Source: an uncultured Gammaproteobacteria bacterium
GTDB taxonomy: Bacteria; Pseudomonadota; Gammaproteobacteria; Poriferisulfidales; GCA-002705445
Assembly: GCA_913065025.1 (NCBI GenBank)
Contig: CAJYAP010000004.1
Coordinates: forward strand, 1 to 53,262
Reading direction: 5' to 3'
Length of the DNA stretch: 53,262 bases
Positions 19,241 through 23,455 of this stretch are shown one piece after another (position 1 is the first letter of the stretch; each line of letters starts with the position of its first letter). The notes under the pieces are model-generated. The model had not been told where the DNA came from. It made no database searches and saw only the letters and a list, made by a program, of their open reading frames with translations. The translations under genes and the position numbers were made by a program.

Positions 19241-19391
19241 AATTTAAAAATACCCAGATAAATAGGTTCTATTATAAAACAAAGTTTAATTTTCAATTAT
19301 TAATATACTACTATATAAATCTCATATATTATTGAATCGTACTAACAATTTAACACAATTTTAGTAATATTTTATGCCTACTAGCCTAACA

Positions 19392-19408
19392 TGGCACAAA
19401 ATATGCAT
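19392..19408 (+). promoter_or_regulatory. sigma54 (-24/-12) promoter of glnA
   Basis: TGGCAC-AAAAT-ATGCAT, GG-N10-GC, about 50 nt before the glnA ATG; AGGAG SD at 19446-19450. Confidence 0.8.
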
Positions 19409-19456: not shown

Positions 19457-20863
19457 ATGTCAGATATAATGAAAACAATAAAGGAGAATGACGTCAAATT
19501 TGTTGATTTGAGATTCACTGATACAAAAGGCAAAGAACAACATGTAACAATTCCCGTAGGCGCAGTAGAAGAATCTTTATTCGAAGATGGTAAAATGTTT
19601 GATGGTTCTTCGATTGCTGGCTGGAAAGCAATTAATGAGTCAGATATGATCCTTATGCCAGATGTTGACACAGCAGTTATGGACCCATTCTTCAGTGATC
19701 CAACTTTAACAGTTAGGTGTAATATTCTTGAGCCTAGTACTGGAGAAGGATACAGTCGTGACCCAAGATCTATTGCTAATAGAGCTGAAAAATATTTAGT
19801 AGACTCCGGTATCGCAGACACAGCTTATTTTGGCCCTGAGCCAGAATTTTTTATATTTGATTCAGTTACTTATGGTAATGAAATCGGAGAATCGTTTTAT
19901 AGAGTTGAGTCAGAAGAGGGTTGTTTTAGCTCTGGAGAACAATACGAAGATGGAAACACTGGTCATAGACCAGGGGTTAAAGGGGGTTATTTTCCTGTGC
20001 CACCAGTTGATTCTTTCCAAGATATTCGTTCTGCAATGTGCAACGTTCTCGAAGAAATGGGTGTAGAAACTGAAGTGCATCATCATGAAGTTGCAACTGC
20101 TGGACAATGTGAAATCGCAACCAAGTTCGACACAATGGTAAAAAGAGCAGATAAAAACCAAGTGATGAAATATGTAATACACAATGTGGCTCATAATTAT
20201 GGAAAAACAGCTACATTTATGCCTAAACCTATTATTAATGATAATGGTAATGGTATGCACGTACATCAATCATTATTTCTAAATGGAGAAAATTTATTTT
20301 TAGGTAATAAATATGGTGGTTTATCAAAACTTGCCCTACATTATATCGGTGGAATTATAAAACATGCAAAAGCTATAAATGCTTTCTCTAACGCAGCTAC
20401 AAATAGTTATAAAAGACTAGTGCCAGGTTTTGAAGCTCCAACTATTTTAACTTATTCTGCTAAAAATAGATCTGCAAGCATAAGAATTCCTTATGTTGCG
20501 AATGACAAAGCTAGACGAATTGAAGTAAGGTTCCCTGACGCATGTGGAAATCCTTATCTTACATTTACAGCGCTAATGATGGCTGGGCTTGATGGGATTA
20601 AAAATCAAATAGATCCAGGACCAAATATGGATATTGATCTGTTTGATGATCTTAGTCCCGAAGACGAAGCTAAAATTCCTCATGTATGTTCTTCTCTTGA
20701 TGAAGCTCTGAAGTCTTTAGATGAAGACAGAGAATTTTTAAAAGCAGGTGGCGTTTTTGATGACGATACAATAGATGCATATATAGCTCTTAAGATGGAG
20801 GAAGTGCAAGCTTTTCAAGCCAATACTCATCCACTAGAGTTTGAAATGTACTATAGCTTATAA
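19457..20863 (+). CDS. glnA: Glutamine synthetase type I
   Basis: [58 protein letters not shown]. Confidence 0.99.
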
Positions 20864-22057: not shown

Positions 22058-23455
22058 ATGGATAACTTAAAAAATATATTCGTTATAGACGATGATAAAT
22101 CAATAAGATGGGTCTTAGAAAAAGCTCTTACAAAAAAAGGTTTTAATGTTTTTTGTTATAAAACATCTGAAGATATGATTAATGCCTTAGAAGAGGTGGT
22201 GCCAAATGTTATTATTTCTGATGTAAGAATGCCGGGGCTTAGCGGAATTGATTTATTAGACAAAATTAAAAGAGAATACCCGTCTATACCTATAATTATA
22301 ATGACTGCATTTTCAGATATGGAAACTACTGTAGATTCTTTAAAAAAAGGGGCATATGACTTCGTAACCAAACCATTTGATATTAATGAAGTTACTGCTC
22401 TTATTGATAAAGCCCATAAAAATTCATTCAATAATAATTTTTCAGAAAAAATAGAACCGTCTAAAAATGTTAGTAAAATTATTGGTACTTCAGAGTCCAT
22501 GCAAACTATATATAAATCTATTGGAAAAATTGCTCAAACTGATATCGAGGTTTTAATACTTGGAGAAACCGGCACAGGTAAAGAGTTAATAGCCAAAGCA
22601 ATACATGATAATAGTGCTAGAAAAGATAAGCCTTTCATTGCCATTAATACTGGTGCAATACCAACTGAGCTTCTTGAATCAGAATTATTTGGGCATGAAA
22701 AAGGATCTTTTACAGGTGCTTATAATCAAAGAATTGGTAGATTTGAGCAAGCCTCAGATGGAACCTTGTTTTTAGATGAAATTGGAGATATGCCACTGGA
22801 TGTCCAAACAAGATTATTAAGAGTATTACAAGAAGGGGAATTCTTCAGAGTTGGTGGTTCAAAGTCAATTAAAGTAAAAACTAGAATCATCACCGCGACA
22901 CATAAAAATCTTAAATCGCTTGTGAATAAAGAAATTTTTAGAGAAGACCTTTTACATAGAATAAATGCCGTTAAAATTGAATTGCCAAATTTAAAAAACA
23001 GGAAGTCTGATATTATCAATTTAGCAGAGCACTTTATGCGATATTATTCTCAAGAATATAAATCCTCATTAAAAGTTCTAAATGACGATGTCAAAAAGGT
23101 TTTTCTAAAATATGATTGGCCAGGGAATATTAGAGAGCTACAAAACGTATGTAAGTATCTTTCCGTAATGTCCGTAAATTCAGATGTAGTAGTTGCAGAT
23201 TTACCAAGGGAATTAGTGAATGAAGGAATAGATTCTAATATCAATATAAATTGGGAAGAGGTATTCGAATCATGGATTCTTAGTGAGTTTAATAAAGATT
23301 CTAAAGATATTTCAAAAAATATTGATAGTATTTATGAATCTATACTTATTAAGTCTGCATTAACGTTATCTGAGGGAAATAAAACGGAAGCAGCGAGAAT
23401 ATTAGGTTGGGGAAGAAATACGATATCAAATAAAATGAAATCTATTGAGAAATAA
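22058..23455 (+). CDS. ntrC: Nitrogen regulation response regulator, sigma54 activator
   Basis: SDVRMPG receiver, GETGTGKE, ELFGHEKGSFTGA, WPGNIRELQN, AARILGWGRNT HTH. Start moved to MDNL at 22058. Confidence 0.96.
   Translation: MDNLKNIFVIDDDKSIRWVLEKALTKKGFNVFCYKTSEDMINALEEVVPNVIISDVRMPGLSGIDLLDKIKREYPSIPIIIMTAFSDMETTVDSLKKGAYDFVTKPFDINEVTALIDKAHKNSFNNNFSEKIEPSKNVSKIIGTSESMQTIYKSIGKIAQTDIEVLILGETGTGKELIAKAIHDNSARKDKPFIAINTGAIPTELLESELFGHEKGSFTGAYNQRIGRFEQASDGTLFLDEIGDMPLDVQTRLLRVLQEGEFFRVGGSKSIKVKTRIITATHKNLKSLVNKEIFREDLLHRINAVKIELPNLKNRKSDIINLAEHFMRYYSQEYKSSLKVLNDDVKKVFLKYDWPGNIRELQNVCKYLSVMSVNSDVVVADLPRELVNEGIDSNININWEEVFESWILSEFNKDSKDISKNIDSIYESILIKSALTLSEGNKTEAARILGWGRNTISNKMKSIEK

Follow-up and report, generated by a model that had tools for sequence, protein, structure and literature searches.

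Does a glutamine synthetase (GS) with phenylalanine at the adenylylation tyrosine lie outside control by GlnE, and is the substitution itself what released it? This question is raised by the glnA gene in the window (the whole stretch of DNA that was analysed, 53,262 nucleotides from an uncultured gammaproteobacterium). The original prediction held that the enzyme carries Phe in place of the modified Tyr next to a one-residue insertion, that it cannot be switched off by GlnE while NtrBC transcriptional control is kept, and that this suits chronic nitrogen limitation. The gene very probably encodes an active type I-beta GS (GSI-beta) outside adenylylation control, in which an old loss of glnE was followed by decay of the loop and by the change to Phe.

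The enzyme and its AMP loop

The following features of glnA have been located, all on the forward strand.

19457-20863 (+): glnA, type I-beta glutamine synthetase, 468 aa, from TIGR00653, PF00120 and PDB alignment
20627-20662 (+): AMP (adenylylation) loop, aligning with MDKNLY-DLPPEE of the Salmonella GS
20642-20644 (+): Phe396 codon TTT, opposite the adenylylated Tyr397 of the Salmonella/E. coli GS in the HMMER alignment
20645-20647 (+): one-residue insertion (Asp397; either of the two Asp), seen as a single gap in the PDB alignments

The profile search against TIGR00653 gives 645.9 bits over residues 3-467 of the glnA product (cut-off 429.15), and the enteric-specific model NF007006 gives a score of 808, slightly below its cut-off of 845. 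In HMMER, the product aligns from end to end at 717 bits with GS structures of Salmonella (PDB 1f1h/2gls) and of E. coli. There is no gap against the Salmonella GS across residues ~140-175, where the beta-specific insertion of ~25 residues lies in the catalytic domain, and the glnA product is therefore assigned to GSI-beta. The GSI-alpha structures (e.g. 4lnf and 7tfa) match it in two separate stretches only. In the 83%-complete assembly, glnA is the only gene matched by PF00120 and so the sole member of the GS family, and a second GS isoform carrying the regulation was rejected on this ground. Across the genus (g1), glnA has been found in 14 of 15 species, the exception being a 79%-complete genome. 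One species (G008) has two glnA genes, a full copy of 94% identity (C15:27890-29293) and a second of 91% (C16:26828-28033) that is cut by a contig end. Both carry Phe, and they could reflect a duplication or a mixture of strains in the bin.

Read in frame with the 468-aa ORF, the loop codons are ATG GAT ATT GAT CTG TTT GAT GAT CTT AGT CCC GAA. The Tyr that is conserved in the AMP loop of GSI-beta enzymes is replaced by Phe396, and the only gap against the Salmonella GS in this alignment is one residue long and falls directly after it. The GlnE recognition context K-x-L-Y-D-L-P-P-E-E is altered at two further positions, with Ile at -3 and Ser at +3, in addition to the insertion. The top PDB match, chain A of 8pvg, is an E. 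coli-like GS chain that reads NLFD-LPPEE and has Phe at 397; we take it to be an engineered Y397F variant that is non-adenylylatable.

Phe occupies this site, together with the extra residue, in each of the 14 species of the genus in which glnA was found, and their alignment, like that of the glnA product from the window, places no Tyr at the modified position. The Phe codon is TTT in 13 of them and TTC in one, while the Leu codons flanking Phe396 vary between CTG, CTA, CTT, TTA and TTG. The loop consensus is [MT][DE]IDLF[DE]DLSPE. Synonymous sites have thus diverged well while Phe was kept, a pattern that shows the mark of purifying selection on Phe396 and on the DLF[DE]DLSPE loop within the genus. 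Such selection could mean that the loop has a function beyond structural maintenance. The insertion is common to this genus, to genus g3 of the same family and to family f4 only.

The assembly is of metagenome type and in 36 contigs, and its incompleteness lends some plausibility to a sequencing or assembly error hiding a true TAT codon, or to a gene decaying into a pseudogene. On the other hand, the same Phe recurs in 14 species whose genomes were assembled independently, one of which encodes it by TTC, and the gene is an intact, full-length ORF that scores well above the family cut-off and is the lone GS gene. With Phe genus-wide, synonymous variation beside it and the ORF intact, error and pseudogene were rejected; their chance is negligible.

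Absence of glnE and the retained nitrogen-control genes

A search of the 83%-complete assembly with PF03710, the GlnE model, returns zero matches, and tblastn of four GlnE proteins from relatives in the class against the genome reaches a best E-value of only 0.72. The absence of glnE from a single genome is weak when taken alone, because the assembly is 83% complete, but its absence throughout the genus compensates for this. With PF03710, all 17 family members (genera g1, g2 and g3; several of these genomes are 95-98% complete) scored negative. Nor is glnE found in any of 19 genomes of family f3, which are 1.4-3.0 Mb in size and in many cases closed, or in the one genome of family f4 (G019). 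Both of these families have kept the GS Tyr. By comparison, the gene was found in 14 of 16 f2 genomes, in the glnE-positive outgroup families and in 48 of 50 named gamma- and beta-proteobacterial genomes (50 of 80 named genomes were covered in the survey). Two genomes, G017 in family f2 and G019, are taken by inference to be glnE-negative, as they gave only weak PF03710 matches in ORFs of GlnD size.

In a sample of the class, glnE was present in 284 of 401 genomes and missing from the other 117 (29%), so that its loss is common there. The glnE-less members include relatives of 1.6-3 Mb in the same order.

The rest of the nitrogen-control system has been retained. The window holds the following features next to glnA.

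19392-19407 (+): sigma-54-type promoter TGGCAC-N5-ATGCA, ~50 bp before the glnA start codon
20959-22056 (+): ntrB (glnL), sensor kinase NR(II), NF008293 at 250.2 bits (cut-off 240)
22058-23455 (+): ntrC (glnG), sigma-54-dependent response regulator NR(I), TIGR01818 at 578.1 bits (cut-off 558.6)

The ORF list puts the start of ntrC at a TTG (21998) that lies within the end of ntrB. As matches to the NtrC family models set in only at ORF residue 26-27, the ATG at 22058, two bases past the ntrB stop, is the likelier start. Elsewhere in the genome, glnD is intact (772 bits, cut-off 519). Two PII genes are present, each with the Tyr51 context of the T-loop: a glnK-type gene directly upstream of a 412-aa ammonium transporter (amtB), and a glnB-like gene that lies between miaA and a gene which, from our reading of its translation, is presumably Kdo-transferase-like. 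The rpoN gene (G000:C9:38555-39481) is cut by the end of contig C9 and covers model positions 3-300 of 434.

Eleven species of the genus have enough sequence upstream of glnA for comparison; each of them has the promoter motif TGGCAY-N5-[AT]TGCA in this position, and its counterpart in genus g3 is TGGCAT-N5-GTGCA. With the regulatory components and a -24/-12 promoter in place, glnA is predicted to be under NtrBC/sigma-54 control and dependent on NtrC. Upstream of this promoter, an AT-rich block of ~90 bp (19285-19375, GAATTATTAATATACTACTATATAAATCTCATATATTATTGAAT...AATTTAACACAATTTTAGT) is near-invariant in the genus, while the intergenic sequence that flanks it varies; the block may contain enhancer sites for NtrC or a further promoter, of the sigma-70 type.

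These results bear out part of what was originally predicted. Phe and the inserted residue stand where they were placed, glnE was not found while glnD, glnK and a glnB-like gene were, and the transcriptional branch of control has been kept. With Phe at the site and glnE missing from genome and genus alike, the GS would lie outside switch-off by GlnE, as anticipated.

Loop decay and the order of events

The relation between the loop and glnE has been surveyed with tblastn-derived loop sequences from ~150 genomes, including 80 of 112 glnE-negative genomes of the class, with G319 left unscored. The residue at the modified position and the occurrence of Pro at Tyr+3 were as follows.

glnE-positive, 67 genomes: Tyr 67, Phe 0, Ser 0, TTN 0; Pro at Tyr+3 in 61
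glnE-negative, 82 genomes: Tyr 60, Phe 20, Ser 1, TTN 1; Pro at Tyr+3 in 11

In a Fisher test on these genome counts, which are phylogenetically non-independent, glnE is associated with Tyr at p = 5e-7 and with Pro(+3) at p = 3e-23. At the family level, Tyr has been lost in 8 of 41 glnE-less families, in most of them to Phe. Independent changes from Tyr to Phe are seen in six further glnE-less families. After dereplication at 85% identity, the entropy of the loop relative to the protein average is 0.61 in glnE-positive genomes and 1.61 in glnE-negative ones. The dereplicated glnE-positive set shows no variation at Lys(-3) (43/43 genomes), Leu(-1), Tyr, Leu(+2) or the first two Glu of the E-E stretch, and it has Pro(+3) in 37/43 genomes. 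The survey shows an AMP loop that stays rigid in GSI-beta enzymes only as long as glnE is there. It also shows a reproducible order of decay following glnE loss, with Pro(+3) and Lys(-3) going first and Tyr last, and the latter only sometimes.

Family f3 (loci L025, L118, L121-L137) retains the GS Tyr and has Ser or Thr in place of Pro at Tyr+3. Since f3 keeps Tyr in glnE-less genomes, Tyr alone is no evidence of adenylylation control. In genus g4 of family f2, glnE is present in 14 of 16 species, and the remaining two (G017 and G022, loci L034 and L119) branch off earliest on the GlnA tree. In both of them Pro(+3) is already Thr, which looks like a separate, recent case of loop decay following glnE loss.

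The maximum-likelihood GlnA tree gives the topology (f4, (g3, g1)) with support values of 99/94 and 100/97. In the f4 genome, the insertion is present, Tyr (TAT) has been kept and there is no glnE. In the g3 genome (G016), which also has the insertion and no glnE, the codon reads TTN and thus encodes Phe or Leu, never Tyr. The loss of glnE preceded Phe, because glnE-less sister lineages still carry Tyr. The simplest history would run from glnE loss to the insertion and then to the change from Tyr to Phe through a single A-to-T change.

The favoured mechanism can be set out along this history. The glnE gene would have been lost before the family split off from its nearest sister family, and without GlnE the AMP loop would no longer have been under selection as its substrate. 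The loop would then have gained its one-residue insertion and lost Lys at Tyr-3 and Pro at Tyr+3, and finally Tyr would have become Phe by a single TAT-to-TTT transversion. As Phe retains an aromatic side chain, the structural role of the loop would be preserved, and purifying selection would have held the residue since.

The claim that Tyr-to-Phe caused the loss of control does not survive this order of events: glnE went first, glnE-less sisters retain Tyr, and Phe comes downstream. The related idea that the change was selected, locking GS permanently on under chronic nitrogen limitation, is improbable. It draws on the fixation of Phe under purifying selection in the genus, on a tiny, streamlined genome that keeps its NtrC/sigma-54 circuitry for nitrogen starvation, and on a similar ecological argument published for glnE-less Great Lakes Nitrospira (PMC9239080). 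However, in a cell with no GlnE, Tyr and Phe are equal with respect to adenylylation; selection is blind to that property, and the substitution was therefore not selected against switch-off. The GlnA tree places glnE loss first, and the proposed fit to chronic limitation is unsupported: this loss is frequent in the class, its 1.6-3 Mb members included. Also, the closest record with a name comes from Saanich Inlet, a low-oxygen fjord that is not nitrogen-poor. The Tyr-to-Phe change would instead be secondary and conservative, made permissible by the old loss of glnE.

The remodelled loop, with Ile at -3, Phe, an extra acidic residue and Ser at +3, might on the other hand have become a contact surface for a different regulator. 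The orphaned GlnB-like PII might dock there directly, or a small inhibitor protein might do so in the manner of the cyanobacterial inactivating factors IF7/IF17, although we consider either candidate a long shot. The loop is near-invariant in 14 species despite saturated synonymous divergence, but its conservation in the genus is about that of the whole protein (roughly 90% identity). The glnB-like PII has been kept although its classical GlnE target is gone, but GlnB retains a target in NtrB. In cyanobacteria, a glnE-less GSI has acquired protein inhibitors (PMC6316151), but no candidate partner gene was seen here. A 2026 cryo-EM preprint (10.64898/2026.09.02.748916) describes the hydrogen bonds of the loop and reports that the unmodified loop stabilises a catalytic Arg; it gives no GlnE recognition determinants for the loop. 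This stabilisation is a sufficient reason for purifying selection on the aromatic residue, and a role as a regulator surface is accordingly very unlikely. If true, it would be a third way to switch off a GSI-beta enzyme. Better supported than such a docking surface is the finding that Lys(-3) and Pro(+3) around Tyr, and not Tyr by itself, follow the presence of glnE, which they would predict from the GS sequence alone.

Comparison with known systems and meaning for the organism

A GS with Phe in the adenylylation loop has been described in Helicobacter pylori. Its GSI-beta enzyme (PDB 5ZLI/5ZLP) has the loop NLF407KLT and has been judged non-adenylylatable (Joo et al. 2018, PMC6076278, citing Garner et al. 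1998), and PDB 5zli is among the homologues of the glnA product. Both are GSI-beta enzymes in which the loop Tyr has become Phe, in an organism with no GS adenylyltransferase. They differ in the insertion after Phe, which is present here and missing in H. pylori. To judge from the title of Garner et al. 1998, H. pylori is also devoid of transcriptional nitrogen-control features, whereas GlnD, both PII proteins, NtrB/NtrC, sigma-54 and a promoter like glnAp2 are retained in the bacterium studied here.

The likeness to the enteric GS-GlnE-PII-GlnD cascade extends to the enzyme class, the glnA-ntrB-ntrC layout, the sigma-54 promoter, GlnD and Tyr51 of PII. What the enteric cascade has and this genome lacks is the second cycle: GlnE and the acceptor Tyr are both absent, and the K-x-L-Y-D-L-P-P-E-E motif is degraded. 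Judged from its gene content, nitrogen control here is predicted to be the enteric cascade minus its second cycle.

Similar enzymes have been reported from plankton. In the Global Ocean Sampling data of 2007 (Yooseph et al., PMC1821046), around half of the marine GSI sequences have Phe or Trp in place of Tyr397, from which non-adenylylation was inferred, and glnE has been lost in the streamlined planktonic Nitrospira of the Great Lakes (PMC9239080). The present case resembles these reports in its planktonic marine lineage, its streamlined genome and a GSI that lacks the adenylylation Tyr; the genome-by-genome link to glnE and the order of events are given here and not there. A non-adenylylatable GS with Phe is thus already known from H. 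pylori and from ocean bacteria, the finding is real but ordinary, and current understanding is not overturned. In metagenomic GS sequences, adenylylation control is better read from the wider motif than from Tyr alone, which marks it poorly.

For the organism, a tiny marine sulfur-oxidising bacterium, the fast post-translational brake on ammonium assimilation would be absent. The GS could conceivably still be modified at another residue, or by an AMPylating enzyme that is unrelated to GlnE. The favoured reading leaves two routes of control only: transcription through GlnD, PII-UMP, NtrB/NtrC and the sigma-54 glnA promoter, and the feedback inhibition that is intrinsic to GSI enzymes. If the adenylylation brake is lacking, GS activity would therefore be set by NtrC/sigma-54 transcription together with feedback inhibition, which would be useful for metabolic models of abundant sulfur oxidisers with tiny genomes.
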